A DNA stretch of 64,000 nucleotides, taken from NCBI GenBank assembly GCA_038150265.1, contig JAYOTF010000005.1, positions 59,595 to 123,594 of the forward strand. Reading direction: 5' to 3'. Shown one piece after another: positions 1 through 64,000 of this stretch. This DNA is from Deltaproteobacteria bacterium (GTDB taxonomy: Bacteria > SAR324 > NAC60-12). The position numbers and the translations under genes are program-made. A model generated the notes under the pieces. The model did no database searches. It saw only the letters and a program-made list of their open reading frames with translations, and was not told the origin of the DNA. Positions within the stretch are counted from its first letter, which is position 1; the number at the start of each line of letters is the position of its first letter.

Positions 1-390
1 ACGGGCCATGCCCAGTGAGAGGTCTCCGGGATACGCCTGTCGGTAGTCGAGCAGGCCCATGCGCTTCAGGTAGCGGAGCGGGCGGTCGCTGGACCGTTCT
101 TCCGGAGGCAGCACCAGCCGGAGGTTCTGCTCAATGGTCCGCCATGGCAGCAGCGTGGGCTCTTGAAAGACATACGCCAGCCGCTGCTCAGGCGCTTGGT
201 CAAAGCGGCCCTCGAAGTGCGGGTCAATGCCGGCGATGAGGTTCAAGAGGGTCGTCTTGCCACACCCGGAAGGGCCTGAGAGGGCAATGAACTCCCCTGG
301 TGCCACGGTGATGGAAACATTTTCCAAAACCACCCGGGGAGGCTCGCCTGCGCGTCCCGGAAAGGCCTTGCGTTCCAGATCAATCTGCAA
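1..390 (-). CDS. ABC transporter ATP-binding protein, NitT/TauT family (runs off window start)
   Basis: Hand translation from TTG at 390: MQIDLERKAFPG...GPSGCGKTTLLNLIAG (Walker A)...YVFQEPTLLPW...LSLGMAR (degenerate signature). Not in the ORF track because it is truncated. Confidence 0.88.
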   Translation of the reverse strand, partial: MQIDLERKAFPGRAGEPPRVVLENVSITVAPGEFIALSGPSGCGKTTLLNLIAGIDPHFEGRFDQAPEQRLAYVFQEPTLLPWRTIEQNLRLVLPPEERSSDRPLRYLKRMGLLDYRQAYPGDLSLGMAR

Positions 391-402
391 CTGCCCTCAC
401 TT

Positions 403-1155
403 TCATGCTGGAACCGCCTTCCAGCGATTGGACCAGCGCTCAAGGGGTTGCAGGATCTGCCACTCAATCAACTGGACAACGACAATAAAAGCCGCACTGT
501 AGGCCAGGATGCCGGCAACGTCAAATAGCTGGAAGTACGCGTGGAGCTGAAAGCCGACGCCGTTGCTGCGTCCGAGTAGCTCGACGACCAGGACGATCTT
601 CCAGATGAGCGCCAGTCCGGAACGCGCTGCTGCGGCAAGGTAGGGAGCCAGTTGGGGCAGCAGGATGTGCCAAAAGCGGTCGGCCCAGGAGAGGCGGTAG
701 CTGATGGCCAGCGCGTTGAACTGCGGGTTGAAGCTCCGGGCGCCTTCCCGCAGGATCACGGTGACGTTCGGGACCTTGTTCAGGATGACGGCCAGCAACG
801 CCGCTGCTTCCACCAGCCCCATGCTGAGGTAGCAGAGAATGATGGTCACCAATGCAGGGACGTTGAGCAGGATGACCAGCCAGAGGTCCAGAGTGGAGTT
901 GACTCGCTCGGAGCGCCCCATGGCAACCCCGATGAGGCTTCCGGTGAACATGGCAATCACAAAGCAGATCAGCACGCGCTTGAGGGTGATGCCGAGGTGC
1001 CACCAAAGCTCCCCGCTCTGGGCTTCTTCCCAGAGTACCTCAAGGGTCTTGCCTGGGGTGGGCAAAAACGGAATCCACTGTCCAGAGGCAGCCAGGTGCC
1101 ACGCTCCGACAATCAGCAGTAAGGATCCCCACGCACCCCAGCTATGCTGCTTCAT
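403..1155 (-). CDS. ABC transporter permease, NitT/TauT (SsuC-like)
   Basis: Multiple TM segments; ELLGRSNGVG motif; overlaps the upstream binding protein gene. Confidence 0.9.
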   Translation of the reverse strand: MKQHSWGAWGSLLLIVGAWHLAASGQWIPFLPTPGKTLEVLWEEAQSGELWWHLGITLKRVLICFVIAMFTGSLIGVAMGRSERVNSTLDLWLVILLNVPALVTIILCYLSMGLVEAAALLAVILNKVPNVTVILREGARSFNPQFNALAISYRLSWADRFWHILLPQLAPYLAAAARSGLALIWKIVLVVELLGRSNGVGFQLHAYFQLFDVAGILAYSAAFIVVVQLIEWQILQPLERWSNRWKAVPA

Positions 1156-2135
1156 GACTCGACGTCAGCCACTCCCCAGAAGGTGCCTTCGGCCAGCTGC
1201 GTGCTGTCGCCAATGAGCTTCTTGCCACCCAGTTTTCCCAAAATCCGGAAGAGCTTTTTGGCATCCCGGACCCCGGCTGCTGTGACGGGTTGGGGGGTGC
1301 CTTCGAGGTAACCCCGCTTGAGCTGCTCAAATTCCGCATCGTTCCTGGTTCCCATCTTGGGACGGAGCGAAGTCCAGGCGTCCGGATTGCGAGCGAGCAG
1401 GTCCTTGGCGCTGGTGGAGGCCTGAACCATCCCGGCGACTGCTTCAGGGTTGGCCTTGGCCCAGTCTTCCATGAAGATGTACCCCAGCATCGGCACCTGC
1501 TCCGTGATGCCAAGCTGAGGAGCAACGTCGGTCAGGTTCATCAGGCGCTTCATGCCGGCCGCCTCAAGCTTGGCGGCAAAGTGCCAGTAGGTGATCACGG
1601 CGTCGACGCGTCCAGCCTGCAGCTCCTTGCTCAGCAGCGGCGGTGCGCCAAAGACCTTCTCGATGGAATTGAGATCCAGGTTGTCCTGCTGCCCAAGGGC
1701 CTGCAGCATGAGCCAGCCCTTGGAGAGGGCGCCACCGACCACTCCGAGCTTCTTCCCTTCGAGGTCCTTGACGGAGGTGATGCCCGAGTCCGGACGGATC
1801 ATCAGGCCACCGACCGAGGACGAGTAGGGGACAAAGCTAAAGGCGTGGCCCTGGTCGCGCATCCGGGAAACCCACATCCAGTCGGCAACCGCAACATCGG
1901 CAGCGCCCTGCTGAACGGCCATCCGGGTGGCACCAATGTCGGCGAGTTCCAGAATCTCCAACTCAATGCCGGCCTGGCGGTCCAGTCCGTTTTCCACAAT
2001 GGCATTCAACTCCCAGTTGACCGTACCGGTTTTGGTACTGGCAACGCGAACCGTGGTTGCGGCGGCGGCAGAGCTCAGCAAGAGGCCTGAGACGGCAACC
2101 GCCAGAAATCGTTTAATCAGCATCGTTCTCCTCAT
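1152..2135 (-). CDS. ABC transporter substrate-binding protein (NMT1/SsuA-like)
   Basis: Signal peptide; DSGITSVKDLEGKKLGV motif; located in the PQQ-ADH cluster. Confidence 0.85.
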   Translation of the reverse strand: MRRTMLIKRFLAVAVSGLLLSSAAAATTVRVASTKTGTVNWELNAIVENGLDRQAGIELEILELADIGATRMAVQQGAADVAVADWMWVSRMRDQGHAFSFVPYSSSVGGLMIRPDSGITSVKDLEGKKLGVVGGALSKGWLMLQALGQQDNLDLNSIEKVFGAPPLLSKELQAGRVDAVITYWHFAAKLEAAGMKRLMNLTDVAPQLGITEQVPMLGYIFMEDWAKANPEAVAGMVQASTSAKDLLARNPDAWTSLRPKMGTRNDAEFEQLKRGYLEGTPQPVTAAGVRDAKKLFRILGKLGGKKLIGDSTQLAEGTFWGVADVES

Positions 2136-3076
2136 TCAGGGTTCAGGTACTCCGGAAGCCGGTAGGTCATGCCGTATTGGGCATAGATCTTCTCCATGGT
2201 GCCGTCATTCACCATTTGAGTTACCTGGTCTTCCAACGCATAGCCGAGGTCACGAGAGTCCTGCCGGACGGCCATTCCGATGTCCCATTCGGTCCGCGGT
2301 TCAGCCATTTCGTAGGTGCACTCCGCCTCAATTTCAACTTTTGAGGTCCAGTCTTTTTTGATGTCGGGGCAGCGGATCACGCGTTGAGGAGTGAGAAGCC
2401 CGGCGAGAGGGGGCTGGAACACGTTGATGTTCTCGGTCTCCGAGAGCATGCTTTCCACAGGGCCGGATAGGCCCATGACGGCGGCGACCTCTCCGGTGCG
2501 GAGCGCGTCCGTTGCTGCAGTCAGGTTGGGGTAGCGGACAATGCCGCGGTTGAGGCGTCCCCCAAACATGCCGGACAGGATGAAGTCCGGAATGCTGTCC
2601 AGTTCCACACCCACCTTCTCATACATGAAGATGGCGTAATTGGGGAACGACTCAATCTTGCGGACGTCGTGCGCCAGCAAGAAGGTTTCAGACTGGTAGG
2701 GGGCCGTGATGACGACGAGCTCGTTCCGGAGGGCAAACTCCAGATCAAAGGGGATGCGGAGCATGAAGTCCGCCACCTCCCAGTTCCGGATGGCGTTGCC
2801 TTTTCCAACAGCCACCCGCAGGTCGGCATCCACGTTTTCCCCGGCCTCATGCCAGTGCCAGCGGGGCTCCACCCCGAGCCGTCGGGCGATCTCTCGCCCA
2901 ATCTCGACATCAGAGCCTCGCGGTTCCCCATTCTCCTGATAGGAAAAGGGGGGGAAGTCGGTGTACACGGCAATGGAGATGTACCCCGACTCCATGACGT
3001 CATCCAGCAAGCGGGCACTGGCCGAACTGAGTGAGACCAGTAACGCCGCGAGGATGCAGAACGCTTTATTCCACAT
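2132..3076 (-). CDS. Family-3 solute-binding-fold protein associated with quinoprotein dehydrogenase (XoxJ/MxaJ/PedG-like)
   Basis: Signal peptide from ATG 3076; AVYTDFPPFSY and GSDVEIGREIARRLGV motifs; directly downstream of cytochrome c550. Confidence 0.75.
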   Translation of the reverse strand: MWNKAFCILAALLVSLSSASARLLDDVMESGYISIAVYTDFPPFSYQENGEPRGSDVEIGREIARRLGVEPRWHWHEAGENVDADLRVAVGKGNAIRNWEVADFMLRIPFDLEFALRNELVVITAPYQSETFLLAHDVRKIESFPNYAIFMYEKVGVELDSIPDFILSGMFGGRLNRGIVRYPNLTAATDALRTGEVAAVMGLSGPVESMLSETENINVFQPPLAGLLTPQRVIRCPDIKKDWTSKVEIEAECTYEMAEPRTEWDIGMAVRQDSRDLGYALEDQVTQMVNDGTMEKIYAQYGMTYRLPEYLNPE

Positions 3077-3636: not shown

Positions 3637-3642
3637 GGGAAC

Positions 3643-9631: not shown

Positions 9632-9663
9632 CTCCGGAAGGGAGCCAAGAGGGCCTTCCGGAG
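9632..9663. terminator. 10-bp inverted repeat downstream of the small ORF
   Basis: CTCCGGAAGG (9632-9641) and CCTTCCGGAG (9654-9663); no clear U tract. Confidence 0.4.
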
Positions 9664-9673
9664 GGGTGAGCGA

Positions 9674-9820
9674 TCAATGCTGCTCTTGGGTGCCGTGGGT
9701 CTGCTTCCACGCAAGGTAAGCCGCTTGTGCGTCATAGGCGTTGCGGTACTCGGTGCGGAAGTAGTTCTTCATCGCCAGTTCGTTGTTTCGGGTAGGGCTC
9801 AGCCAGTTCAGAATTTTCAT
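9674..9820 (-). CDS. Small hypothetical protein (48 aa)
   Basis: Hand translation MKILNWLSPTRNNELAMKNYFRTEYRNAYDAQAAYLAWKQTHGTQEQH*; fills an intergenic gap; AT-rich region upstream and hairpin downstream. Confidence 0.65.
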   Translation of the reverse strand: MKILNWLSPTRNNELAMKNYFRTEYRNAYDAQAAYLAWKQTHGTQEQH

Positions 9821-10032
9821 TGTGTGATCTCAGATTTGAGTGTCCCGACATCCCTCGGGAAGGAAGAGCCAAACCAATTGGCCCTTGTTACTAAATCAAT
9901 TTAGCGCTGGTTTTATACAAACTCAAACCTGTTTTTGTAACAATAGTTGCTTTTATTTGGAATGAAACGAATGGGAGGCGCCTTCTCCGGAGGCAGCTCT
10001 TCAAGGCGCCAAACGGTGGAAAGTGGCTCCCT

Positions 10033-22108: not shown

Positions 22109-23119
22109 CTAGGGAAGGACCGGAAGGCGGGTGGTCACCATCTTGATGTACTGAGAGCGCTCAAATGCCGCCGGATTGTCCCCATGGAGGTGGCTGAGGC
22201 TTCCTTGCATCTGCTTGACCGACTCATACTCGTGGCGCTCCATCCACTCCACCAGGTCGCTTTTGATTTGTTCCAGGTGGGCCATGCCGTTCCAGAACAG
22301 CGCGGAGGCCATCATGGTCACCTTCGCCCCAACCATCAACAGCTTCAGGACGTCCTCGTGGCTGTGAATGCCACTGGTGGCAGCAAAGTCGACCCCAATC
22401 TTTCCATACAGCAGCCCGATCCAGGTCAGCGGAAGCCGATGCTCTTCTGAGGACGAGAGCACCACCTTGGGCTTCAGGGTCAGCTCATCCAGGTCCACAT
22501 CTGGCTGGTAGAAGCGGTTGAAGAGCACGAGCGCGTTGGCCCCGGCGCCTTCCAGTCGGCGGGCGACGTTGCCGAAGTTGGTGTAAAACGGGCTCAGCTT
22601 CACAGCAAGGGGAATCCGGGTTTGATCCCGGACGGTCCAGACGATGTTTTGCAGGGCCTGCTCCATCCCCTCGGCGCTCCGGTCCAGGTCGGTGGGCACC
22701 GAGTACACATTCAGCTCCAGCGCATCGGCGCCGGCCTGCTCAATTTCCTGGGCCAGTCGGGTCCACCCGCCGTTGGTTTCCCCATTGAGGCTGGCAATGA
22801 CTGGAATGCCAAGGCGTTGCTTGGCGCGCATGATCAGCTCCAGGTACTCCTCAGGTCCCACCTGCAACTCTGGGTGCTCCGGAAAGTAACTGGTGGCCTC
22901 GGCATGACTCTCAGCGGTGTGGCTGAGGTGGAGGTCCAGAAAGCGCCCCTCATGAGCGAGTTGCTCCTCAAACAGCGAGGGCAGGACGATTGCTCCGGCT
23001 CCGGCATCTTCAAGCCTCAGCAGGTTGTCCAGCTTCTCCGTCAGAGGAGACGCTGAAGGCACAAGCGGGGAGCTGAGTTCCATCCCCAGGTAGTGGGTGC
23101 TCAAGTCCATGATGCTCAC
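22109..23119 (-). CDS. Dihydroorotate dehydrogenase-like flavoprotein (PFOR-associated)
   Basis: SASPL, SLFEEQ, VKLSP, LFNRFYQPD, SGIH; overlaps the PFOR stop. Confidence 0.85.
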   Translation of the reverse strand: MSIMDLSTHYLGMELSSPLVPSASPLTEKLDNLLRLEDAGAGAIVLPSLFEEQLAHEGRFLDLHLSHTAESHAEATSYFPEHPELQVGPEEYLELIMRAKQRLGIPVIASLNGETNGGWTRLAQEIEQAGADALELNVYSVPTDLDRSAEGMEQALQNIVWTVRDQTRIPLAVKLSPFYTNFGNVARRLEGAGANALVLFNRFYQPDVDLDELTLKPKVVLSSSEEHRLPLTWIGLLYGKIGVDFAATSGIHSHEDVLKLLMVGAKVTMMASALFWNGMAHLEQIKSDLVEWMERHEYESVKQMQGSLSHLHGDNPAAFERSQYIKMVTTRLPVLP

Positions 23120-26100
23120 TCCTGTTCAGGTTGTTGCGGAGCTGGCTCGGGAATCCAGCCAGCGAGGTGCTCATAGAAGCGTTGCCGTTCGTTGAGGCCC
23201 ACCTCTGCGACCTGTTGCAGGTGTTTGGCGGTGTCCGGATCCGTCTGTCGGAGCATGCGGTAGCGGTTTTCCAAATCCTGGAACTGGCTGAGGTGAACGC
23301 CTGAGGGCTTGGAGTCCAGCTGCAGCGGTGGCTGGTGCAGGGCAATGCGCCGAGGATCAAAGCGGTACAGGGGCCAGCTTCCAGACTGCACCAGAGCCTT
23401 TTGGTGCTGCATCCCGGTGGTCATGTCAATGCCGTGGGCAATGCAGTGGCTGTAGGCAATGATCAGCGACGGTCCCGGATACGACTCGGCCTCAAGGAAG
23501 GCCCGGAGCGTGTGAGTATCCTTCGCGCCCATGGCCACGCTGGCGACATAGACGCTGCCGTAGCTCATTGCCATCATGCCCAGGTCCTTCTTCGCCTGCA
23601 CCTTTCCTCCCATGGCAAACTTGGCCACGGCGCCCATCGGGGTGGATTTCGACTTCTGGCCACCAGTGTTGGAATACACCTCGGTGTCGAGCACCAGCAC
23701 ATTGACGTCTCGGCCACTGGCAAGCACATGATCGAGTCCCCCAAAGCCAATGTCGTAAGCCCAGCCGTCTCCGCCGATGATCCACACACTCCGGCGGACC
23801 AGCGTCTCGGCAAGGGATTCAAGCCGGCGGGCCTGAGGCGTTTGCAGGGCCTGCAGCTTCTGCCGGAGTTGCGTCACGCGTTCTCGCTGCTCATGGATGC
23901 CGGCTTCGGTGCTCTGATCGGCTTCCAGGAGGGCCTGGACCCAGGTGTCTCCGAGCTCCGGAGCGAGTTGCTTCACCAGGGTGGTGGCCGTCTGCTGCTG
24001 CTGATCAAGGGTGACCCGGAAGCCCAGGCCAAATTCGGCGTTGTCTTCAAAGAGGGAGTTGGACCACGCGGGTCCGCGTCCTTCCGGAGTCTGTGCCCAC
24101 GGCGTGGTGGGCAGGTTTCCGCCGTAAATGGAGGAGCACCCGGTGGCATTTGCCACAACCATGCGGTCTCCAAATAACTGAGACGCCAGCTTGACGTACG
24201 GGGTTTCTCCACATCCTGAACAGGCTCCGGAGAACTCGAACAGCGGCTGCTGAAACTGCTGCTGCGGAATCTTTCCGGCATCAATTCGGAGGCGGTCGGT
24301 CTCCGGAAGCGCGGTGAAGAACTTCCAATGGGCCGCCGAGGCTTCCCGTAGTGGCGCCTGTGGCTTCATGTTGATGGCCTTGAACTTGGTCTGCGACTTG
24401 TTCTTCGCGGGGCAGACATCGACACAGAGGCCGCAGCCGGTGCAGTCTTCTGGAGCAACAGCGAGCACATACTGCGCTCCTTCCCAAGTGCGGTCACGTG
24501 CTGGAACAGAGAGGAAGCCTGCTGGTGCCGCGTCCAGCGCTTGGGGCTCCACGACCTTGGCGCGGATGACCGCGTGCGGACAGACCATCAGGCACTTGTT
24601 GCACTGAATGCAGGTCTTCGGGTCCCAGACCGGGATCTCGGCCGCAAGGTTGCGCTTTTCCCACTGGGCGGTTGCGGTTGGGAAGGTGCCGTCTTCCGGA
24701 AGCGCGCTGACTGGAAGCTGGTTTCCGCCATCGGCAATGATGCACCCCAGCACGTTTTTGACAAAATCCGGAGCCTCTTCCGGAACGGCAGGCTTGAACG
24801 CCAGACGACTGCTGACCGTCTCCGGAAGCGGCACCTCGTGCACGGCCTGCATGGCTGCTTCGAGGGCCTTCAGGTTTTGCTCAACAACCGCAGTTCCCTT
24901 CGAGGCATAGGTCTTCTTGACGGCGTTCTGAATGGCTTCGCGGGCCTGTTCTTCCGGAAGCACGCCACTGACCTTGAAGAAGGCCGCCTGCATGACCGTG
25001 TTGATGCGACGTCCCATGCCCACCTCCCGGGCAATGCGCTCCGCGTCAATGACGGTGAAGCGCATCCGCTTTTCCAACAGCTGCTCCTGAAGGGGACGCG
25101 GCAGGTGGTTCCAGGCGGCTTCCGGAGCATCTGGCGTGTTCAGCAGGAAGGTGGCTCCCGGAAGGGCCGAGGCAAGGACGTTGTGACGCTCCAGGAAGAC
25201 GGGCTGGTGACAGCCAATGAAGTTGGCCTGCTCAATCAGGTACGGCGCTCGGATGGGCTCGGGTCCGAAGCGCAGGTGCGAGATGGTCATGGCTCCGGAT
25301 TTCTTGGAGTCGTAGACGAAGTAGGCCTGAGCAAAGTGTCCGTCAAGGTCGCCGATGATCTTGATGCTGTTTTTGTTGGCCCCAACGGTTCCATCCGAGC
25401 CGAGGCCGTAGAAGATGGCCCGGAAGGTGTCTGGAGACTCAATGCGGAAGGACTCGTCCACGCTCAGGCTCAGGTGGGTGAGGTCGTCATCAATGCCCAC
25501 GGTGAAGGGGTGCCGAGGTGAGTCGTCATGGAGGTGGTCGAGGGTGGCCTTGACCATCGCCGGGGTAAACTCCTTGGACGAAAGCCCGTAGCGTCCGCCC
25601 ACCACCTGAGGTGCGTGCTCCCGCCAGCCCTGGCGGACGGCCTCGGGAAGCGCGGCGGCGACATCCAGAAACAGGGGCTCTCCCAACGCCCCCGGCTCCT
25701 TTGTTCGGTCGAGGACCGCCAGCTTCTGGACCGTCTTGGGAAGAACGGCAGCAAACCGCTGGACGTCGAAGGGGCGGTAGAGACGCACAGTGACCACTCC
25801 GACACGATCTCCCTGTGCCTGGAGGTACCGGACGGTTTCCCGCGCCGTTTCCGCCCCTGATCCCATGAGCACCAGGACGCGCTCGGCTTCCGGGTGCCCG
25901 GTGTACTCAAAGACCTGGTAGGCGCGGCCCGTTAGCTCAGCAAAGCGGTCCATGACCTGCTGGACGGTTTCCGGAACCTGTTGGTAGAAACGATTGGAGG
26001 CTTCCCGGGCCTGAAAGAAGACATCCGGGTTCTGGGCGGTTCCGCGCAGTACCGGGTGTTCCGGAGAAAGAGCGCGCTCGCGATGGGCCTGAATGGCCGA

Positions 26101-26688
26101 CTCGGAGACCAGCTGCTCAAGAACCTCGTTGGGAAGGCGTTCGGAGGAGTTGAGCTCGTGCGAGGTCCGGAAGCCATCAAAGAAGTGCAGCACCGGCACT
26201 CGGGAAAGCAGCGTGGCCGCATGAGCAAGGGCGGCATGGTCTGCCGCTTCCTGGACGCTTCCGGAGGCCAGCATGGTCCAGCCAGCAGGACGCATGGCCA
26301 TCACGTCGGAGTGGTCTCCGAAGATCGAGAGGGCATGTGTGGCAACCGAGCGGGCGGCCACGTGGATGACGGCTGGAGTGAGTTCGCCTGCAATCTTGTA
26401 CAGGTTGGGAAGCATCAGGAGCAGGCCCTGCGACGCCGTAAACGTCGTGGCGAGTGCCCCGGTTTGCAGGGCGCCATGAAGCGCTCCGGCAGCTCCTCCT
26501 TCGCTTTGCATTTCCACAACATCCGGACGTCCGCCCCAGATGTTGTCGCGTTGACCGGCGCTCCAGGTGTCTGCCCACTCTCCCATCGGCGAAGATGGGG
26601 TAATGGGGTAGATGCAGACCACCTCACTCAGCCGGTAGGCGACATCAGCGACTGCTTCGTTGCCATCAAGAATGTGATGTGTGCCCAT
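23116..26688 (-). CDS. nifJ: Pyruvate:ferredoxin (flavodoxin) oxidoreductase
   Basis: YPITP, MQSEGGA, GGRYGL, two CxxCxxCxxxC, GACSGCGE, GDGWAYDIG. Confidence 0.97.
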   Translation of the reverse strand: MGTHHILDGNEAVADVAYRLSEVVCIYPITPSSPMGEWADTWSAGQRDNIWGGRPDVVEMQSEGGAAGALHGALQTGALATTFTASQGLLLMLPNLYKIAGELTPAVIHVAARSVATHALSIFGDHSDVMAMRPAGWTMLASGSVQEAADHAALAHAATLLSRVPVLHFFDGFRTSHELNSSERLPNEVLEQLVSESAIQAHRERALSPEHPVLRGTAQNPDVFFQAREASNRFYQQVPETVQQVMDRFAELTGRAYQVFEYTGHPEAERVLVLMGSGAETARETVRYLQAQGDRVGVVTVRLYRPFDVQRFAAVLPKTVQKLAVLDRTKEPGALGEPLFLDVAAALPEAVRQGWREHAPQVVGGRYGLSSKEFTPAMVKATLDHLHDDSPRHPFTVGIDDDLTHLSLSVDESFRIESPDTFRAIFYGLGSDGTVGANKNSIKIIGDLDGHFAQAYFVYDSKKSGAMTISHLRFGPEPIRAPYLIEQANFIGCHQPVFLERHNVLASALPGATFLLNTPDAPEAAWNHLPRPLQEQLLEKRMRFTVIDAERIAREVGMGRRINTVMQAAFFKVSGVLPEEQAREAIQNAVKKTYASKGTAVVEQNLKALEAAMQAVHEVPLPETVSSRLAFKPAVPEEAPDFVKNVLGCIIADGGNQLPVSALPEDGTFPTATAQWEKRNLAAEIPVWDPKTCIQCNKCLMVCPHAVIRAKVVEPQALDAAPAGFLSVPARDRTWEGAQYVLAVAPEDCTGCGLCVDVCPAKNKSQTKFKAINMKPQAPLREASAAHWKFFTALPETDRLRIDAGKIPQQQFQQPLFEFSGACSGCGETPYVKLASQLFGDRMVVANATGCSSIYGGNLPTTPWAQTPEGRGPAWSNSLFEDNAEFGLGFRVTLDQQQQTATTLVKQLAPELGDTWVQALLEADQSTEAGIHEQRERVTQLRQKLQALQTPQARRLESLAETLVRRSVWIIGGDGWAYDIGFGGLDHVLASGRDVNVLVLDTEVYSNTGGQKSKSTPMGAVAKFAMGGKVQAKKDLGMMAMSYGSVYVASVAMGAKDTHTLRAFLEAESYPGPSLIIAYSHCIAHGIDMTTGMQHQKALVQSGSWPLYRFDPRRIALHQPPLQLDSKPSGVHLSQFQDLENRYRMLRQTDPDTAKHLQQVAEVGLNERQRFYEHLAGWIPEPAPQQPEQE

Positions 26689-27156: not shown

Positions 27157-28713
27157 TCAGGTCATCCCGGTCATCATGCGGCCGATTTGCTCGACACTGG
27201 CGTCAGACCGGGGCAGGACGCCCACGATGCGTCCGTCAAAAAGAACGGCAATGCGATCGGAGAGGAGCATGAGCTCATCCAGATCTTCCGAGATCCACAA
27301 CACCGCCAATCCTTCCTCCCGTCCGGCTCCGATGGATTCTCGAATGAAGCGGGTGGCATGAATATCCAGTCCGCGTGTGGGCTGACAGGCCAGCAGCACC
27401 TTGAGGGGGCGAGAGGTCTCTCTCGCGAGGATGACCTTCTGCATGTTTCCCCCAGAGAGCAGGCCCACCCGGGTCTTTTCAGAGGGAGCCCGGACATCGA
27501 ACTCTCCCATTTTTTCATGACCATACTGCTGAATGGCTCTGTGCTGCAGCAGGGCATTTTGGAAAAATTGGGAATTTTGAAAATCCCGGAGCAGGAAGTT
27601 TTCGGCAATGGACATTCCGGAAGCCACTCCAAATTTTTTCCGGTCTTCAGGAATGTAGCCCACGCCCCGCTGAATGAGGTCGTTGACCTCTGGAGGCGCC
27701 AGCGTTTCGCCTTCAAACTGGAAGCGTCCGGAGGTGAGGGGGCGCAGGCCACAGAGGACCTCTGCCAACTCGCGCTGTCCATTTCCTGAAACTCCAGCCA
27801 TGCCCAGCACCTCGCCGGCACGAAGCTCAAGGGAGACCCCCTTTAGCGCCGGGTGTCCCAAGTCGTTGACCGCATGAACCGCCTCAAGGGAGACAACGAT
27901 GCGGCCCTGCTCGGATTCGGTGGGCTGCTGGGCCACTTGCTCCGCCTGAGCCTCTTGAAGGACCACGGCTTCATCGGCATCAAGCTGTGCCTTGGGGGCG
28001 TTGCCCATCATCCAGGAGGCCAGGGCCTCCGGCGTGGTGTCTTCGCGCTGCAGCGTGGTCATCAGGCGCCCATGGTGAATGACGGTGATCCGGTGCGAAA
28101 GCGCCATCACCTCCTTCATCTTGTGGGAAATGAAGAGCAGGGACTGCCCCTCCTGACTCATCCGCTGCATGATGCGGTAGAGCGCTTCAGACTCCTGAGG
28201 CGTCAAGACAGCGGTCGGCTCGTCCAGGATCAGGACCTGGGCTCCTCGGTACAGCACCTTGATGATTTCCACACGCTGCTGCTCGCCCACGGAGAGGTCT
28301 CGGACGCGGCGAGTTGGGTCGACCTCAAGGTTGTAGCGCTCGCTGATTTCCCGGATCTCCTGGTTGACCTTCCGGAAGTCGAGGGCCTGGGCGCCGGGCT
28401 GGCCGAGAATGATGTTTTCAGCGACCGTGTGGTTCCGGACCAGCATGAAGTGCTGAAAGACCATGCCGATGCCGTGCTCAATGGCCTGCCGGGGATTCCG
28501 GAAGAGAACGGGCTTGCCATGGATGCGGATCTCTCCCTCGTCGGGAGCATAGAGCCCGGCAATGATGCTCATCAGCGTGGACTTGCCGGCACCGTTTTCT
28601 CCAAGGATCGTGTGGATTTCTCCGGCTCGCAGATCCAGGTCGATGTGATCGTTGGCAAGAACTCCGGGAAAGGCTTTGGTGATCCCCTGAAGTTCCAACA
28701 CAGGAGGCGTCAT
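27157..28713 (-). CDS. Double-domain sugar/nucleoside ABC ATP-binding protein
   Basis: GENGAGKST, FQHFML, DEPTAVLTP, LSGGNMQK, QPTRGLD. Confidence 0.9.
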   Translation of the reverse strand: MTPPVLELQGITKAFPGVLANDHIDLDLRAGEIHTILGENGAGKSTLMSIIAGLYAPDEGEIRIHGKPVLFRNPRQAIEHGIGMVFQHFMLVRNHTVAENIILGQPGAQALDFRKVNQEIREISERYNLEVDPTRRVRDLSVGEQQRVEIIKVLYRGAQVLILDEPTAVLTPQESEALYRIMQRMSQEGQSLLFISHKMKEVMALSHRITVIHHGRLMTTLQREDTTPEALASWMMGNAPKAQLDADEAVVLQEAQAEQVAQQPTESEQGRIVVSLEAVHAVNDLGHPALKGVSLELRAGEVLGMAGVSGNGQRELAEVLCGLRPLTSGRFQFEGETLAPPEVNDLIQRGVGYIPEDRKKFGVASGMSIAENFLLRDFQNSQFFQNALLQHRAIQQYGHEKMGEFDVRAPSEKTRVGLLSGGNMQKVILARETSRPLKVLLACQPTRGLDIHATRFIRESIGAGREEGLAVLWISEDLDELMLLSDRIAVLFDGRIVGVLPRSDASVEQIGRMMTGMT

Positions 28714-32492: not shown

Positions 32493-33043
32493 TCCGGATC
32501 CGAGGCGCAGATGATGCGGCTTTGACGAACCCGGAACATGCCGTTCGGGACCACGCGCTCATGCACAATCTCTGTTTCAGCATCATCCTGACGCCGCACG
32601 CCGAAGCTGCCGTCTGTCCGGAGGATGATTTCTGCTCCCGGAAGGGCATAGAAGGTCTGGCTGCCTCGGTCAATCACGGCCGGACGTGGAATCTCAGGAC
32701 GAGGCTCACGAGGAGGACGGGCCTCGCGAGGGGGGCGCTCACGCTCCGGATCCTCTGCAGGCTGGACCTGCTGGATCGGCAGCTCGTTCCAGTTGTCCGG
32801 AAGCTCGGAGCCCGCTCGAAGCAGGCAGACCGCCCGATCCGGACCTTCTCCCACGGAGTGGCTCTCCAGTCCATAGTCGGTGCCGAGCTTGTGGAGCAGG
32901 CGCCGCCGGTACGAGTTCATCGGCTCAAAGCGCAAAACGGTCTCTTCCGTCTCCAGAAAACGATTGATGCTCTGATCGGCTTGTTCAATCAGCGTCTGTT
33001 CCACTTCGCTGATTTCCGTGTCTTGAAAAAGGTGAGCCTTCAT
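32477..33043 (-). CDS. R3H domain nucleic-acid-binding protein
   Basis: EPMNSYRRRLLH...LESHSVGEGPDRAV; Pro/Arg linker; unknown C-terminal domain. Confidence 0.8.
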   Translation of the reverse strand: MKAHLFQDTEISEVEQTLIEQADQSINRFLETEETVLRFEPMNSYRRRLLHKLGTDYGLESHSVGEGPDRAVCLLRAGSELPDNWNELPIQQVQPAEDPERERPPREARPPREPRPEIPRPAVIDRGSQTFYALPGAEIILRTDGSFGVRRQDDAETEIVHERVVPNGMFRVRQSRIICASDPEWRAL

Positions 33044-49189: not shown

Positions 49190-51937
49190 TCAGGAAACGC
49201 TCAGGGGAGGAGCCGTTGCCTGGAGGCGGACGGCACAAAACTTAAACTCCGGGATCTTTCCAAAGGGGTCGAGCGCATCGGTGGTCAGGAGGTTGGCGGC
49301 CGCTTCATGGTAGGAAAACGCCATGTACACGCTCCCGCGTGGGACCCCCGCATCCGGACGGACCTGCGCCGTCAATTCCCCTCGGCGAGACTGCACCCGG
49401 AGCTGCGCGTCGTCATCCGGATTCAGCTGAGCCCAGTCTTCAGGGTGGATGCTGATCACGGGAACCGGCTCCACCGCGTCCAGCACCCGCGCCCGGCGGG
49501 TCATGCTTCCGGTGTGCCAGTGCTCCAGCTGCCGTCCGGTGACAAAGACAAAGGGGTAGGTGGCATCCGGAAGCTCATGTGCGGGCGTGAAGGTCGCCGG
49601 AACAAACTGGGCGCGCTGCGAAGGTCGGGGAAAGTGCTCCTGGAAGAGGATCGGAGCCCCCGGGTCGCCTTCCTGTTCGCAGGGGTAGGTGACGCTGTGT
49701 TCGCGCTCCAGGCGTTCCCAGGTGATGCCGGCCATGCTGGGGGTGGCCTGCCGGACTTCCGCAAAGATTGCCTCGGGTCCGGAATAGTTCCACGGCAGCC
49801 CCAGGCGCTGGGCCAGTTGCTGGAGGATCCACCAGTCCTGGCGCGCCTCTCCGGGCGGATCCAGGGCCTGACGCCCAAGCTGAACCTGCCGGTTGGTGTT
49901 GGTGAAGGTTCCGGTTTTTTCCGGAAACGCCGAGGCCGGAAGCAGGACATCGGCAAAACCGGCGGTCTCGGTGGGAAAGATGTCCTGCACCACCAGGTGC
50001 TGCAGCCGGGCCAGGGCCTCACGGGTGTGGTTCAGGTTCGGGTCCGACATGGCCGGATTCTCCCCCATGATGTAAATGCCCTGAATCGTCCCCTGGTGCA
50101 CCGCCTCGGTGATCTCCACCACCGTCAATCCCGGGTTCGGATCCAGCGGGGTGTTCCAGAGGGCTTCAAAGAACGCCCGGGCTTCTGGAGCATCCACGCG
50201 CTGGTAGTCCGGAAACACCATCGGGATGAGGCCCATGTCGGAGGCTCCCTGCACGTTGTTTTGGCCGCGCAGGGGGTGGAGCCCGGTTCCGGGACGTCCG
50301 ATCTGGCCCGTCATCAGCGCCAGCGCAATCAGGCAGCGGGCGTTGTCGGTGCCATGCGTGTGCTGCGAGACCCCCATGCCCCAGAAGATGATGGAGCGCT
50401 CAGCGGTGGCGTAGCAGCGTGCCACCTCCCGGAGCGTCTCCGCAGGGATGCCACAGATCGGCGCCATGCGTTCCGGAGCATACGCCTCCAGGTTGGCGCG
50501 GAAGGCCTCAAAGTTTTCGGTACGCTCGGCGATGAAGGCTTCATCGCACCAGCCCTCGGACACAATGACATGCATCAGGGCATTGAACAGCGCCACATCC
50601 GTTCCGGGATGAAAGTGCAGGCCATGGGTGGCATGCCGGGCCAGCTCGGTTCGACGCGGGTCAATCATCACCAGCGTCTTCCCGGCCTTGGCGGCATTCT
50701 TGAAGAAGGTCGCCGCAACTGGGTGGTTCGCCGTGGTGTTGGAGCCCACCACCACAATGACCTCAGCGTCTTCTGCGTCGGTGAACGGATTGGAAACGGC
50801 GCCGGAGCCGATTCCTTCCAACAGGGCGGCCACCGAAGAGGCATGACACAACCGGGTGCAGTGATCCACGTTGTTGCTGCCAAATCCGGTCCGGATCAGC
50901 TTCTGGACGAGGTAGGCCTCCTCGTTGCTGCCCTTGGCACACCCGAAGCCGGCCAGGGCCTGAGGTCCATTTTGTGCCCGAATCGTCCGGAAGCCTGCCG
51001 CTGCTCGGTCAAGGGCTTCTTCCCACGAAGCCTCCCGGAAGACCTTCGGGAAGTCTTCAGGAGCCAGCAGGTCCGGAGTCTTCGGGACGCCGTCGCGCCG
51101 GATGAGGGGCCGGGTCAGGCGATCCGGGTGGTGAACGTAGTCGAAGCCGTACCGTCCCTTGACACACAGGCGCCCCTGGTTGGCGGGTCCGGGACGTCCG
51201 GACACCTGCAGGATGCGGTTGTTCGTGACCTGGTACTCGAGCTGGCAGCCCACGCCGCAGTAGGGGCACACGGAAGGAACCCGCTTCTCCGGAACCTCCA
51301 GCCCCACCTGCTGGGCAGGCATCAGGGCGCCGGTGGGGCAGGCCTGCACGCACTCGCCACAGGCCACGCACGAGCTGCTCCCCAGCGGGTCACCGAGGTC
51401 AAAGACGATGGACGCCTGAGCGCCCCGGAAGGCAAAACCGATGACGTCGTTGACCTGCTCCTCACGGCAGGCCCGGACGCAGCGTCCGCATTGAATGCAG
51501 GCGTCCAGCTGCACCGCAATCGCCGGGTGCGAGGCATCCGCCTGCGGCTGGTCACGTTCCGGAAAGCGGGAAGTCGCGACCTCCAGGCGTTCACACCAGG
51601 TGTCCAGCTCCGAGTGCCGGGTGTAGGGCGAAGGCCCCTGCTGGGGCATGTCCGCCAGCAGCAACTCGAGGACCAGTTTCTGCGAATGCCGGGCGCGCTC
51701 GTTTTGGCTCCAGACCTTCATGCCGGGGGTGGGGGTGCGCAGGCACGAAGGCGCTAACGCGCGCTCGCCTTCGATTTCCACAACACAGGCCCGGCAGTTT
51801 CCATCCGGACGGTACCCCGGGTGGTAGCAGAGGAAGGGGATCTCGACCTGAACCCGCTGGGCCACCTGCAGGATCGTCTCGCCCGGATGTGCTTCCACGG
51901 GCAGGCCATTCAGCTCAAAGGCAATGGGCTCATTCAT
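49190..51937 (-). CDS. fdhA: Formate dehydrogenase alpha subunit (Mo/W-bis-PGD, Cys ligand)
   Basis: N-terminal Fe-S motifs, CPYCGVGC, TRLCHASS, RGQNNVQG, HWHTGSMTRR. Confidence 0.93.
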   Translation of the reverse strand: MNEPIAFELNGLPVEAHPGETILQVAQRVQVEIPFLCYHPGYRPDGNCRACVVEIEGERALAPSCLRTPTPGMKVWSQNERARHSQKLVLELLLADMPQQGPSPYTRHSELDTWCERLEVATSRFPERDQPQADASHPAIAVQLDACIQCGRCVRACREEQVNDVIGFAFRGAQASIVFDLGDPLGSSSCVACGECVQACPTGALMPAQQVGLEVPEKRVPSVCPYCGVGCQLEYQVTNNRILQVSGRPGPANQGRLCVKGRYGFDYVHHPDRLTRPLIRRDGVPKTPDLLAPEDFPKVFREASWEEALDRAAAGFRTIRAQNGPQALAGFGCAKGSNEEAYLVQKLIRTGFGSNNVDHCTRLCHASSVAALLEGIGSGAVSNPFTDAEDAEVIVVVGSNTTANHPVAATFFKNAAKAGKTLVMIDPRRTELARHATHGLHFHPGTDVALFNALMHVIVSEGWCDEAFIAERTENFEAFRANLEAYAPERMAPICGIPAETLREVARCYATAERSIIFWGMGVSQHTHGTDNARCLIALALMTGQIGRPGTGLHPLRGQNNVQGASDMGLIPMVFPDYQRVDAPEARAFFEALWNTPLDPNPGLTVVEITEAVHQGTIQGIYIMGENPAMSDPNLNHTREALARLQHLVVQDIFPTETAGFADVLLPASAFPEKTGTFTNTNRQVQLGRQALDPPGEARQDWWILQQLAQRLGLPWNYSGPEAIFAEVRQATPSMAGITWERLEREHSVTYPCEQEGDPGAPILFQEHFPRPSQRAQFVPATFTPAHELPDATYPFVFVTGRQLEHWHTGSMTRRARVLDAVEPVPVISIHPEDWAQLNPDDDAQLRVQSRRGELTAQVRPDAGVPRGSVYMAFSYHEAAANLLTTDALDPFGKIPEFKFCAVRLQATAPPLSVS

Positions 51938-53616
51938 GACTGGACTTCCTCGGGAAAGTACTTCAGCACGCACCGGATGGGGTTCGGAGCCGCCTGACCG
52001 AGCCCGCAGATGGAGGCGTCTTCCATCACCTGTGCCAACTCTTCGAGCAGCGGGCGGTCCCAGGTGGGAGCCTGCATCAGCGCAACGGCCTTGCTGGTGC
52101 CCACGCGGCAGGGCGTGCACTGGCCACAGGATTCGTGGTGAAAGAACCGGAGGGCGTTGAGCGCCAGGTCGCGGGCCCGGTCCTGCCGGGAAAAGACCAC
52201 CACGGCCGCTGAGCCAATGAAGCAGCCGTGCGCCTGCAGGGTCCCGAAGTCGAGCGGCACCTGAGCCAGGGACGCGGGGAGGAGGCCTCCCGACGCGCCT
52301 CCGGGGAAGTAGCCATAGAGCTCGTGTCCGGGCGCCATGCCGCCGCCGTATTCATCGAGCAATTCCTGGAGGGTGATGCCTGCAGGCGCGAGGTAGACAC
52401 CGGGGCGAGCGACCCGCCCACTGAGCGAGAAGGCCCGCAGGCCCTGACGTCCGTGCCGACCCGCCTGTGGGAACGCCGAGCCGTCTGGCGCGAGCAACGG
52501 GGGCACCCAGTGCAGGGTCTCGAGGTTGTGCTCCAGCGTGGGACGTCCAAACAGCCCCACTTCCGCAACGTAGGGGGGACGCTGTCGTGGCAGGCCCCGT
52601 TTGCCTTCGAGCGACTCAATCAGCGCCGACTCCTCGCCACAGACGTAAGCCCCTGCGCCTCGGCGGAGGTGGAGCTTCGGGAGCGGTCCTGGCGGGTGGG
52701 CCTCCAGCGCACGAAGCTCGCGTTGCAGCAGCGTGTGGCACGCCGCGTATTCGTCCCGGAGGTACAGGTAGGCGGCATCGATGCCCACCGCCCAGCAGGC
52801 GATCAGGACGCCTTCCAGAAATTGATGCGGCTGCGTCTCCAGGCAGTAGCGGTCCTTGAAGGTGCCGGGCTCGCCTTCGTCAATGTTGACGGCCAGCAGC
52901 CGAGGGCCAGGTTGGTCCCGGACGATGCGCCACTTGCGTCCCGTTGGAAACCCGGCCCCGCCGAGTCCCCGCAGGCCGGAAGCCTCCAGCGCCTCCAGGA
53001 CCGATTCCACGCTGCGGGCGCCGGAAAGGCAGTCTCGGTACACCTGGTACCCTCCGGAGGCCTGGTACTGCTCCAGCGTTGGCGCCTCCGGAAGCACCGG
53101 AGTCACCTGACCGGACTGCACCACGGCAGCGACTCCTTCCGGAGTGGCCTGCTCCACAGGGTTCTTGCCCACGACGGCCACCGGAGCCCTGGCGCAGCGT
53201 CCCACGCACGGAACCCGCTGGATCCGGACGTTGGGGCCCAGGCGGGCTTCGAGGCTGGAGGCCAGGGCCTCGGCCCCGAACAGCGAGCAGGTCAGGGAGT
53301 CGCACACCCGAACCGTCAGGGGCGCCGGAGCAGGCTCGCCTTCCTTGACGACGTCAAAGTGGTGGTAGAAGGTGGCGACCTCATAGACCTCCGCTGGTGC
53401 GAGCCGGAACTCTTCAGCAAGCGCGACCAGGTGCGGCGCCGAGAGGTACCCCTGGGCATCCTGCAGGAGGTGAAGGGCTTCCAGAAGCTGATCCCGCTCT
53501 CGAGGAAGCGCCCCAAGCCACTCCTGGACCTGAGCCTGGGCCTGGGGGTCGACGACGCGACCCCGCCGGCGCTTCCGGCGTTTGCGAGGCGGTTCAGAGG
53601 AAACAGGCTGCTGCAT
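51934..53616 (-). CDS. fdhB: Formate dehydrogenase beta subunit (NuoE-NuoF fused diaphorase)
   Basis: VATFY, CDSLTC, GLGGAGFPTG, DEGEPGTFKD, CGEES, ESCGQCTPCR, SICGLG. Confidence 0.92.
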   Translation of the reverse strand: MQQPVSSEPPRKRRKRRRGRVVDPQAQAQVQEWLGALPRERDQLLEALHLLQDAQGYLSAPHLVALAEEFRLAPAEVYEVATFYHHFDVVKEGEPAPAPLTVRVCDSLTCSLFGAEALASSLEARLGPNVRIQRVPCVGRCARAPVAVVGKNPVEQATPEGVAAVVQSGQVTPVLPEAPTLEQYQASGGYQVYRDCLSGARSVESVLEALEASGLRGLGGAGFPTGRKWRIVRDQPGPRLLAVNIDEGEPGTFKDRYCLETQPHQFLEGVLIACWAVGIDAAYLYLRDEYAACHTLLQRELRALEAHPPGPLPKLHLRRGAGAYVCGEESALIESLEGKRGLPRQRPPYVAEVGLFGRPTLEHNLETLHWVPPLLAPDGSAFPQAGRHGRQGLRAFSLSGRVARPGVYLAPAGITLQELLDEYGGGMAPGHELYGYFPGGASGGLLPASLAQVPLDFGTLQAHGCFIGSAAVVVFSRQDRARDLALNALRFFHHESCGQCTPCRVGTSKAVALMQAPTWDRPLLEELAQVMEDASICGLGQAAPNPIRCVLKYFPEEVQS

Positions 53617-62678: not shown

Positions 62679-63704
62679 TCAAGGAGCGCAACCGCTGGAA
62701 GCGCGCTGAAGCAGTTCGGCTTGCTGAAGAGACTGATGCTCTCGAGGGTTGGCGCCCCGGATCAGACTCAGCAAGGCCTGAGCAACCACCCGTCCCGACT
62801 CGTCAATCGAGCGCGTCATGGTGGTGAGTGGAGGATCAAAGAGGTCCCCAAGGGCCACACCGTCATAGCCGATGACGGAGACCTCCTGAGGCACCCGCAA
62901 GCCATGGTGCCGGGCCGCCTTGATGACCCCGAAGGCGGTGGCATCATTCACACAGACCACTGCGGTGGGACGTTCCGGCCCCTGGAACAGCTGCTGGCCC
63001 TGAGTGAAGCCACAGTGTCCGCTGAGGTCTCCTTCGCGCACCCAGTCTTCCGGAACCGGCAGACCGGCGGCATTCATGGCCTGGCGGAAGCCGATTTCCC
63101 GGAGTGCCGACGAATAGAGCAGGTCGCCGCCGGTGATCATGGCAATGCGTCGGTGTCCCAGGGCGATCAGGTGTTCGGTCGCCACCCGGAAGGCGGCTTC
63201 TCCATCGATGTCGAACCAGGCATGCTCCGCGGCCCGGGCGGTTCGTCCGTGGGCCACAAACGGGATGTGCTGCTCCAGCAACCAGTCCACGCGTGCGTCT
63301 TGCTCGCGGGTCCGGATGACCACAAATCCATCCACCTTCCGGGCTTCGACGAGGCGCTGGTACCCTGCCAACGGGTTGGGGTCGGAGAGGCTGCTGTGGA
63401 TGAGCAGGTCAAATCCCTGGGGCGAAAGCGCATCAGCGAGCGCGGCGGTGAATTCGGTCAAAAAAATTCCAGACACCTCTCCCGCATCCGGAGGCAGGAC
63501 CAGACCAATGGTTTCAGTCTGCCGCAGGGCCAGGCGCCGGGCGGAAGTCGACGGACGGTAGCCCAGCTGCTCCGCTGCCGCCGCAACTCGGGCCTTGGTT
63601 CGCTCGGAAATGTCCTCGTATCCGTTCAGGGCTCGGGACACCGTTGCTTTCGACAGCCCCAGGTGCAGGGCCAAATCGTTGATGCTGACGCTCTCTTTCC
63701 TCAT
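62679..63704 (-). CDS. LacI family transcriptional regulator
   Basis: SINDLALHLGLSKATVSRALNG, LGYRP, VSVIGYD, PPLTT. Confidence 0.95.
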   Translation of the reverse strand: MRKESVSINDLALHLGLSKATVSRALNGYEDISERTKARVAAAAEQLGYRPSTSARRLALRQTETIGLVLPPDAGEVSGIFLTEFTAALADALSPQGFDLLIHSSLSDPNPLAGYQRLVEARKVDGFVVIRTREQDARVDWLLEQHIPFVAHGRTARAAEHAWFDIDGEAAFRVATEHLIALGHRRIAMITGGDLLYSSALREIGFRQAMNAAGLPVPEDWVREGDLSGHCGFTQGQQLFQGPERPTAVVCVNDATAFGVIKAARHHGLRVPQEVSVIGYDGVALGDLFDPPLTTMTRSIDESGRVVAQALLSLIRGANPREHQSLQQAELLQRASSGCAP

Positions 63705-63738
63705 GCCTCCTTCCCTCATGATGCGAAGTCACCCTGAA

Positions 63739-63783
63739 CGAAACCGGTTTCGCTGTCAACACAAAAAACGAAACCGGTTTCGT
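63739..63783 (-). promoter_or_regulatory. Two LacI-type operators flanking a TTGACA -35 box
   Basis: CGAAACCGGTTTCG at 63739-63752 and ACGAAACCGGTTTCGT at 63768-63783; minus-strand TTGACA at 63754-63759. Confidence 0.85.
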
Positions 63784-64000
63784 AAGCCCAGAATTTTGGA
63801 GAAGCTCCAGGAGAGCGGAGAGTGGGGGGCGAGGTTGAGGGAGAGGGCTGGTTGAGGAGGAGGGGATTAGAAAAAATGGCGGTGCCCTTTTTTGTCCTTT
63901 TTTGTCCCTGCCCTCCTCAAAAATCCAGCCAGCCCTGATGAGTTCAGGGATTGTGCTTTTTGCATTTTGTCCCACCTCTCTGGGGGCGAATCAGAGAACA

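Follow-up and report, generated by a model that had tools for sequence, protein, structure and literature searches.

Cyanobacteria have been known for three decades to contain highly iterated palindromes, on whose function there is no agreement. In Escherichia coli the word CCWGG is over-represented through Dcm methylation and Vsr very-short-patch repair. The uptake signal sequences (USS) of the Pasteurellaceae and the DNA uptake sequences (DUS) of the Neisseriaceae are oriented words of 9–12 bp, evenly spread at a density of at least about 1 per kb and held by a weak genome-wide bias. The cooperating operators and DNA loops of LacI, AraC and lambda CI depend on helical phase. The word considered here, TCCGGA, is the recognition site of BspEI, Kpn2I and AccIII, and restriction targets are normally avoided. 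It was analysed in a stretch of 64,000 bp (the window, positions 59595–123594 of contig C5), in the assembly to which the window belongs, which is referred to throughout as G000 (3,393,712 bp in 87 contigs, 61.2% guanine plus cytosine (GC), 97.8% complete), and in related genomes. TCCGGA is a non-cyanobacterial iterated palindrome with a physical clue that the cyanobacterial palindrome HIP1 lacks, in that its copies are spaced by the helical repeat and sister lineages have opposite phases.

HIP1 has the sequence GCGATCGC, and 'alternate HIPs' are also present in cyanobacteria, according to the available parts of two papers (Elhai 2015, PMC4390886; Xu et al. 2018, PMC5861425). The same parts state that a word-specific methyltransferase is present wherever a HIP is frequent (Elhai 2015), that HIP1 sites are kept between genomes more than control palindromes and hexamers and show a periodicity of 18–94 kb (Xu et al. 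2018), and that HIP1 is scarce in highly transcribed regions. The literature search, with subscription journals and supplements outside its scope, found no account of a hyper-abundance of TCCGGA, or of an iterated palindrome phased at the scale of base pairs. TCCGGA is not mentioned in the available parts of Elhai 2015 (PMC4390886) or Huang and Mrazek 2014.

Abundance of TCCGGA and its placement in genes

The window contains 162 copies of TCCGGA, one per 395 bp, where 100 dinucleotide-preserving shuffles give 24.3 ± 5.1 (largest 41; 0 of 100 reach 162). The first-pass annotation of the window had described TCCGGA as a highly iterated palindrome on the basis of hand tallies (14 in 1–6200, 15 in 24000–26550 and 14 in 49190–51937). 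These tallies agree exactly with the site list, and the description extends to the whole of G000, in which there are 9,711 copies, one per 350 bp, and TCCGGA is the commonest hexamer on a single strand. The next hexamers, CCGGAG (about 5,468), CCGGAA and their complements, all overlap it. The ratio of observed to expected copies (O/E) in the genome is 8.7 from base composition, 7.6 under an order-1 Markov model, and 3.95, 2.39 and 1.22 under models of order 2, 3 and 4. The order-4 model, a check proposed in the annotation, comes near 1 because it is built from the pentamers of the motif itself, TCCGG and CCGGA, of which 54% in G000 sit within TCCGGA; the low value is thus not counted as a refutation. 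The three palindromes that had been suggested for comparison are ordinary, these being ACCGGT (745 copies, O/E 1.09), TGGCCA (2,111, 1.38) and AGGCCT (1,639, 1.27), and by order-1 O/E the second of all 64 palindromic hexamers is AGTACT at 3.65, with 415 sites.

No longer word was found in G000, the NTCCGGAN 8-mers having O/E values of 0.84–1.21 against an order-6 model, with a mild preference for TTCCGGAA among the 8-mer extensions. The one-mismatch variants TCCGGG and CCCGGA, which had looked common by eye, are moderately enriched (O/E 2.28, the highest of the neighbours of TCCGGA). The depletion of TTCGGA and TCTGGA for which the annotation had proposed to test is not seen, since the deamination neighbours are at expectation or above (TTCGGA/TCCGAA O/E 1.00; TCTGGA/TCCAGA O/E 1.51).

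The window is a sample of this genome-wide feature, which runs across housekeeping genes and spacers. Within it 56 genes were called, with Pfam names including ABC transporters, pyrroloquinoline quinone (PQQ) dehydrogenase, pyruvate:ferredoxin oxidoreductase, flagellin, Lon, Ffh and ribosomal proteins.

1..64000, no strand: TCCGGA field of 162 sites
23116..26688, minus strand: pyruvate:ferredoxin oxidoreductase gene with 17 TCCGGA (POR_N, POR, EKR and TPP_enzyme_C domains; site list)
49190..52120, minus strand: molybdopterin oxidoreductase gene (976 amino acids) with 14 TCCGGA (Pfam; site list)
9633..9991, no strand: non-coding example, sites 9633, 9657 and 9986 in a spacer (no gene called in 9531–10033, with a caller that can miss genes)

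The PQQ-dependent dehydrogenase lies at 3643–5430 of the window and is adjoined by solute-binding and ABC genes, as judged from Pfam domains only. Searched against genome contigs, the pyruvate:ferredoxin oxidoreductase has only relatives of 53–67% identity, spread over many phyla, and for Lon a protein atlas has Pseudomonadota as the commonest group.

Genes were called throughout G000 with a simple codon-model caller trained on this genome, giving 2,621 genes that cover 85% of the bases; the 'non-coding' remainder includes missed genes. Coding DNA contains 8,520 TCCGGA (2.94 per kb) in all three codon phases (1,993, 2,334 and 4,193). The remainder, 501 kb, contains 1,194 (2.38 per kb), and TCCGGA is the top hexamer there too (order-1 O/E 6.2). 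Synonymous shuffling, in which the protein and the codon usage of each gene are kept, yields 2,041 ± 39 copies (largest of 20, 2,122), for an O/E of 4.17 overall and 3.2–5.1 in the separate phases. Shuffling of codon order yields 1,244, and the difference between the two shuffles puts the contribution of the protein sequences themselves at about 1.6-fold. There are 20,564 permissible positions, at which the amino acids allow TCCGGA, and 8,518 of them (41.4%) are filled, whereas codon usage predicts 1,842 (9.0%). No dicodon is more over-represented than TCC-GGA (1,993 against 339 expected), and next come NNT-CCG dicodons, which are parts of the motif. Where GAN follows CCG, 67% of the codons preceding CCG end in T, against 33% where it does not and 14% of all codons. 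A dicodon-preserving null fixes the phase-0 count and is informative only in the other two phases, where TCCGGA spans three codons; in these a first-order codon chain predicts 1,738 copies against 2,334 found and 2,613 against 4,193 (O/E 1.34 and 1.60). The first-pass annotation had argued that a single dipeptide bias does not explain the word, and had named two outcomes that would speak against its own claim, an O/E near 1 under such a null and an unexceptional rank among hexamers. The dipeptide argument is borne out by the three phases, the non-coding sites and the synonymous shuffle, while the dicodon null leaves an excess in both testable phases and TCCGGA is an outlier among hexamers.

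Occupancy of permissible positions per gene is binomial (z-score standard deviation 0.98 over 1,177 genes, lowest −3.0). No gene among the 1,177 has an occupancy that is low beyond chance, and low-occupancy genes are therefore ruled out as marks of foreign DNA. The 557 windows of 10 kb hold on average 29.1 TCCGGA (standard deviation 5.7, Poisson 5.4), and because the minimum is 10 sites there are no site-free islands. Density is level along genes, with a dip between −50 and +25 around start codons (0.9–2.0 against 2.5–3 per kb elsewhere). Spacers with promoters are slightly poorer (divergent 1.97, tandem 2.26 and convergent 2.83 per kb), and there is no upstream enrichment of TCCGGA. These three features together indicate that TCCGGA is not a promoter or operator motif. 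Adjacent gaps shorter than 30 bp are rarer than when the sites of a gene are redistributed over its permissible positions (5.3% against 8.6%, z −10.7). A separate short-range feature is a spike at exactly d = 9 (TCCGGA-NNN-TCCGGA), with 45 pairs in G000 against about 4–22 at neighbouring distances; 400 kb of the relative G013 has 7 such pairs, short range being otherwise depleted.

Helical phasing and its inversion between clades

Distances between TCCGGA sites of G000 in the range 12–400 bp (11,127 pairs) have a spectral peak at 10.45 bp with a power of 59, where noise is about 1, and a phase of about 0, which places the peaks at whole multiples of 10.45 bp. Seven other palindromes and nine abundant non-palindromic hexamers reach at most 6.4, or about 10 where they overlap TCCGGA. 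The sequences that span the pairs are unique (8,319 of 8,320), and when the contigs are split the odd half peaks at 10.45 bp (power 44.9) and the even half at 10.5 bp (power 22.9). The amplitude of the phasing is about 0.33 below 100 bp, 0.14 at 100–200 bp and 0.10 at 200–300 bp, and it is absent beyond about 400 bp, spacings having been looked at up to 3 kb only in this 87-contig assembly. The permissible positions have a power of only 1.6 (48,263 pairs), and on thinning them randomly to the observed occupancy it does not exceed 4.7 in 50 trials, against 46.7 for the realised coding sites. It is therefore the choice among synonymous codons, and not a periodicity of the proteins, that writes the register. 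CCCGGA/TCCGGG alone among the one-off variants shares the register of TCCGGA (power 14.2, same phase), and other hexamers that contain CCGG are unphased. Among the 46 pairs lying 12–110 bp apart in the window itself, 25 deviate from a whole multiple of 10.45 bp by no more than 0.2 turn and 12 by more than 0.3 turn. Two phased trios illustrate this.

28371..28502, no strand: sites 28371, 28434 and 28497, all within an ABC-ATPase gene, both gaps being 63 bp (6.03 turns of 10.45 bp)
32745..32843, no strand: sites 32745, 32796 and 32838, with gaps of 51 and 42 bp (4.9 and 4.0 turns), from the site list

Across 30 relatives the ratio of TCCGGA to the backwards-read control word AGGCCT ranges from about 30 to below 1, with the qualification that the control word is imperfect and related genomes are not independent. 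The family consists of 45 genomes in 12 genera.

Genus g1: 4–6 times the control, 3 of 3 genomes
Genus g12: 14–30 times, 3 of 3 genomes
Genus g11: mostly 6–32 times; three genomes that are 51–57% complete are near 1.6 times
Genera g4, g6, g3, g10 and g7: 3–8, about 4.6, 3.8, 2.6 and about 2 times, respectively
Genera g9, g8, g5 and g2 (9 of 9 genomes): about 1 time

The specificity to a lineage that had been supposed from the window alone is thus evident, since one family spans values from about 1 time (g2, 9 of 9 genomes) to about 32 times the control. The enrichment is also independent of base composition, because G018, at 43.3% GC, has TCCGGA as its third commonest hexamer, behind only the A and T homopolymers. 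Two genomes of the same order, G021 and G026 (1.6–1.7 Mb, single contigs), have about 4-fold less TCCGGA than control word (40 against 182 and 37 against 151) and 9–11 matches each to an N4/N6 methyltransferase query. They represent an opposite regime, in which many modification enzymes are accompanied by avoidance of the site.

The phase was compared between genomes from pair counts in three-wide spacing windows, each of which contains one multiple of 3, at d = 30–32, 36–38, 41–43 and 46–48. These correspond to 3.0, 3.5, 4.0 and 4.5 turns, and the counts are given below in that order. Whole-genome counts were used since the 400-kb samples of G001 and G002 are too small for clean spectra.

G000: 101, 64, 129 and 52 pairs (random about 83 per spacing window)
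G002: 59, 44, 67 and 39 (random about 51)
G018: 130, 14, 79 and 14 (random about 22)
G005: 27, 10, 36 and 7 (random about 13)
G001: 21, 63, 22 and 57 (random about 57)
G013: 7, 75, 10 and 68 (random about 52)

The first four genomes have an excess of whole turns over random, up to six-fold. G001 and G013 avoid whole turns (0.13–0.4 times random) and have half turns at or slightly above random. The spectra agree with the counts, G018 peaking at 10.45 bp with a phase of 0.17 rad and an amplitude of 0.83 below 100 bp, and a 400-kb sample of G013 peaking at 10.55 bp with a phase of −2.8 rad. In genus g11, 13 genomes have 10 or more pairs and every one of these favours whole turns (whole/half counts of, for example, 135/27, 113/23 and 52/3), five further genomes having too few pairs to class. 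All three g4 genomes lean to whole turns (19/7, 27/10 and 11/10), and in g12 half turns are preferred by each of the three genomes (5/58, 7/75 and 1/26). G011, of genus g10, has whole/half counts of 2/13 in the same pair of spacing windows but 7/7 in the other pair.

The same preference is present when only pairs of positions that are permissible in both members of an ortholog pair are considered. Both sites of such a pair are occupied more often in phase than in anti-phase in G000 (40/199 against 24/225, p 0.009; 92/433 against 56/440, p 0.0008) and in G002 (59/433 against 34/440, p 0.006), with odds ratios of 1.85–2.1 and p values of 0.0008–0.009 overall. The direction is opposite, and not significant, in G001 (24/199 in phase against 36/225 in anti-phase, odds ratio 0.72) and in G013 (7/120 against 11/108, odds ratio 0.55). 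The helical phase of TCCGGA is a clade trait, with whole turns in G000, G002, g11 and g4 and half turns in G001 and g12.

Explanations for the word and its register

Individual sites were followed in ortholog sets shared with G002 (n = 324, 90% identity, 49.8% of four-fold sites differing), G001 (n = 275, median amino-acid identity 72.5%) and G013 (n = 273, 61%). Between G000 and G002, where the amino acids are unchanged, 424 of 751 TCCGGA are identical (56.5%) against 41% of control hexamers, in keeping with the conservation in relatives on which the first-pass annotation had proposed to test its claim. Codons are retained more often inside the motif than outside it (CCG 65 against 51%, CGG 68 against 57%, GGA 57 against 48%), with p values of 2e-8 for CCG and 2e-4 for CGG, and the top variant at orthologous sites is CCCGGA/TCCGGG. 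Sites turn over and yet are kept above controls, therefore the density is held by a weak continuing pressure. Occupancy of 41% against 9% corresponds to an odds ratio of about 7, from which the standard formula for mutation-selection balance would give a scaled advantage of about 2 per site. This strength is within the range of codon-usage selection or biased conversion.

The main explanation proposed, judged about equally likely to be right or wrong, is that TCCGGA is a chromosome-wide recognition word for a binding protein whose sites are phased. A shared helical register would need an agent that senses the twist between copies, and a bound protein is the simplest candidate. DNA looping and cooperativity are phase-dependent over this range through torsion-dependent contacts between proteins. 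An abundant, probably dimeric protein would bind the TCCGGA palindrome while tolerating CCCGGA, and bound copies would contact each other or a common partner in a manner that depends on the twist between them. A torsion-dependent interaction between sites would therefore bring about weak selection for sites in the register that suits the geometry of the protein in each lineage, and lineages of the whole-turn and half-turn kinds would differ in the geometry of their nucleoprotein assembly. The pattern in the sequence suggests that a protein reads the chromosome through TCCGGA.

Several observations count against this explanation. Cooperative binding sites typically form dense arrays, and TCCGGA has none, with 0 runs of five copies in 130 bp where random placement gives 4.9; the absence of such arrays in G000 also removed them as possible marks of an autoregulated reader gene. 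At a permissible position where G000 has a site, the chance that G001 has one too is only 0.44, against 0.30 where G000 has none (odds ratio 1.83); for G013 the values are 0.41 and 0.31 (odds ratio 1.55), and at phase-2 positions G000 and G001 are nearly independent (0.47 against 0.43). Such poor conservation of position at genus distance is also what a mutational or conversion drive would give. Retention between G000 and G002 does not differ with the phase to the nearest neighbour (in phase 84/159, out of phase 48/90), which, with limited power, is mildly against selection because a difference of about 0.15 is predicted. No periodic A/T, AA/TT, GC, CG or GG/CC was seen around the sites. Of possible readers, G000 has one ordinary ParB, no extra ParB and no histone fold, and these were rejected as candidates; a Cfr10I/Bse634I-type fold (PF07832) has no match in G000, but no control genome matched either. 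The protein model is weakest in that retention does not depend on phase and that no reader protein was found.

Among the alternatives, a repair ratchet linked to a methyltransferase, either HIP1-like or of the very-short-patch kind, would mark TCCGGA or its core and convert near-sites to full sites. G000 has no match to the C5 methyltransferase (PF00145) or Vsr (PF03852) families, the controls being matched in 9 and 3 known genomes. A screen of stop-to-stop frames of at least 120 amino acids for (D/N/S)PP(Y/F/W) gave 99 motif matches, from which 20 frames with Y-type motifs and long open reading frames were picked for Pfam. Only 2 of the 20 are DNA methyltransferase-like; the others are RlmL, PrmC, RsmD or unrelated proteins and were rejected. 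Both have SPPY, a motif typical of N4-cytosine enzymes, and their nearest solved structures include N4-cytosine enzymes.

C45:2844–3620: putative N4/N6 methyltransferase of 258 amino acids, which follows and overlaps a 948-amino-acid reverse-transcriptase gene
C51:2–1387: second methyltransferase-like gene, cut by the contig end

The C45 enzyme is full-length in only two of the 31 genomes, G000 and G001 (71% identity), with a fragment in G002, and is therefore accessory. The protein of the C51 gene, which carries the motifs DPFMGGGT and TSPPYPGTYDY, is conserved across the order. Orthologs occur in 26 of 31 genomes, among them the TCCGGA-poor G003 and G014 (47%), G010 (46%) and G023 (40%), and none was found in the TCCGGA-rich G018 (87% complete). 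In poor genomes the middle part of the protein, the putative target-recognition region, has not diverged further than the remainder (0.41–0.46, against 0.50 in the rich G012).

Two further observations concern the surroundings of these genes. The C45 gene is part of an apparent operon (G000:C45:1–6228) of reverse transcriptase, methyltransferase and then open reading frames of 311 and 546 amino acids without a Pfam family; the reverse transcriptase has RVT_1 at residues 685–876 and a long unassigned N-terminal part, and is cut by the contig start. The operon looks like a mobile defence island. A TerB-like protein follows the C51 gene in G000 and G002 (G000:C51:2–2727), and the N-terminal extensions of C51-type orthologs vary in length, up to a 730-amino-acid frame in G002.

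The ratchet is consistent with the two SPPY genes, with the order-wide occurrence of the C51 type beside housekeeping genes, as for an orphan enzyme, and with commonest one-off variants that differ at the outer positions (CCCGGA/TCCGGG), as is the case for HIP1 in the available part of Elhai 2015 (PMC4390886). It is nevertheless unlikely. The 97.8% complete genome has neither a C5 methyltransferase nor Vsr, the enzyme linked to the reverse transcriptase is full-length in two genomes only, and the C51 type is present in poor genomes, was not found in the rich G018 and shows even conservation along its length when rich genomes are compared with poor ones. Neither TCTGGA/TCCAGA nor TTCGGA/TCCGAA is depleted, and the ratchet model, which in the same part of that paper saturates at about one site per 1000 nucleotides, falls threefold short of the one per 350 bp seen in G000. 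A context-free ratchet also accounts for neither the helical phasing nor its inversion between clades. The methylation and repair mechanism put forward in the annotation is thus not upheld, given the lack of a C5 enzyme and Vsr and two N4/N6-type enzymes that do not track the enrichment.

A drive linked to DNA uptake or recombination, of the Haemophilus or Neisseria kind, would spread the word because DNA that bears it is preferentially taken up or recombined. This would suit the binomial occupancy, the use of all frames, the spacing more even than random, the turnover and the weak per-site bias; ComEC and DprA are present in G000, and the available text of recent work ties HIP1 to transformation and gene transfer. 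ComEC is found in 31 of 31 genomes, however, and therefore does not discriminate rich from poor, and a 6-bp palindrome without a conserved extension would confer little specificity. An uptake-type drive accounts for uniformity and turnover but not phasing, predicting neither the 10.45-bp register nor its clade-specific inversion, and it is improbable as the explanation. As an aside on ComEC, the match in the TCCGGA-poor G014 (C146:5513–6151) has an in-frame TAG and a short open frame of 224 amino acids, so that the gene may be broken or the assembly wrong at this point.

A code in DNA mechanics without a reader is also conceivable, in which TCCGGA is flexible or bent, copies in phase curve the DNA, copies in anti-phase leave it straight, and lineages differ in their preference. 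The period matches the helical repeat and does not change between 43% and 61% GC, and a genome-wide dinucleotide periodicity of about 10–11 bp under selection is known from the available part of Atzinger and Lawrence 2020 (PMC7537859). The lack of periodic composition around the sites and the absence of phasing in any other hexamer, including those containing CCGG, make this very unlikely, and mechanics alone leaves a seven-fold rise of one word unexplained. An artefact of codon usage, amino-acid content, base composition or repeated DNA, for which the order-4 O/E of only 1.22 and the 1.6-fold due to proteins might be cited, has next to no chance of being correct and is already refuted by the shuffle, occupancy, uniqueness and dicodon controls, with O/E 4.17 when proteins and per-gene codon usage are fixed, equal enrichment in non-coding DNA, a 14-fold excess over the control word in a relative of 43% GC, and unique sequences spanning the site pairs.

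The first-pass annotation had named methylation and repair, DNA uptake and chromosome organisation as possible origins of the motif. The last fits best because the copies are spaced in register with the DNA helix; the first is not supported by gene content, and the distribution of ComEC does not discriminate the second. A fuller form of the binding-protein explanation is offered tentatively, and is somewhat more likely to be wrong than right. TCCGGA would be the address of an undescribed chromosome-organising system, in which an abundant dimer occupies about 10,000 sites on one face or on alternating faces of the DNA according to lineage, and the genome sequence would preserve a trace of two possible architectures of a single nucleoprotein fibre, the change from one to the other having taken place at least twice in one family. 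The helical spacing, written in synonymous codons, and the opposite phases of sister lineages turn a vague genome signature into a prediction, that of a TCCGGA-binding protein whose preference for whole or half turns differs between named lineages. A weak architectural constraint can set about four in ten of the eligible synonymous choices, which bears on codon-usage models, binning and annotation.

Comparison with described systems

TCCGGA resembles HIP1 as a GC-rich short palindrome far above expectation, genic in all frames and intergenic, variable between lineages and without an assigned function. It is also retained above control words, and its one-off variants tend to differ in the first or the last letter. 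It differs in having 6 letters rather than 8, in its non-cyanobacterial host, in being about three times denser, and in that no methyltransferase was found to co-vary with it, as judged from predicted enzymes and their profile among 31 genomes. The 18–94 kb periodicity of HIP1 is a different phenomenon from a 10.45-bp register with a clade-specific phase, and where HIP1 is scarce in highly transcribed regions the occupancy of TCCGGA is binomial across genes.

Like USS and DUS, TCCGGA is found in all frames, evenly and weakly maintained, with individual sites not conserved; unlike them it is a 6-bp palindrome without an extension and is helically phased. It shares with CCWGG the character of a short word raised by a sequence-specific, genome-wide process, but G000 is without the C5 methyltransferase, Vsr and deamination-neighbour depletion of the Dcm/Vsr system. 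Restriction targets are the reverse case, TCCGGA being the commonest hexamer in G000 and not avoided. In contrast to the anonymous dinucleotide periodicity of about 10–11 bp, as described in the available part of Atzinger and Lawrence 2020 (PMC7537859), it is a single hexamer that is phased. The spacings resemble those of the LacI, AraC and lambda CI loops in being preferentially multiples of the helical repeat that fade over a few hundred bp. Those loops involve a few promoter pairs, whereas TCCGGA is one hexamer at nearly 10,000 sites, not tied to promoters and present in two phase classes.

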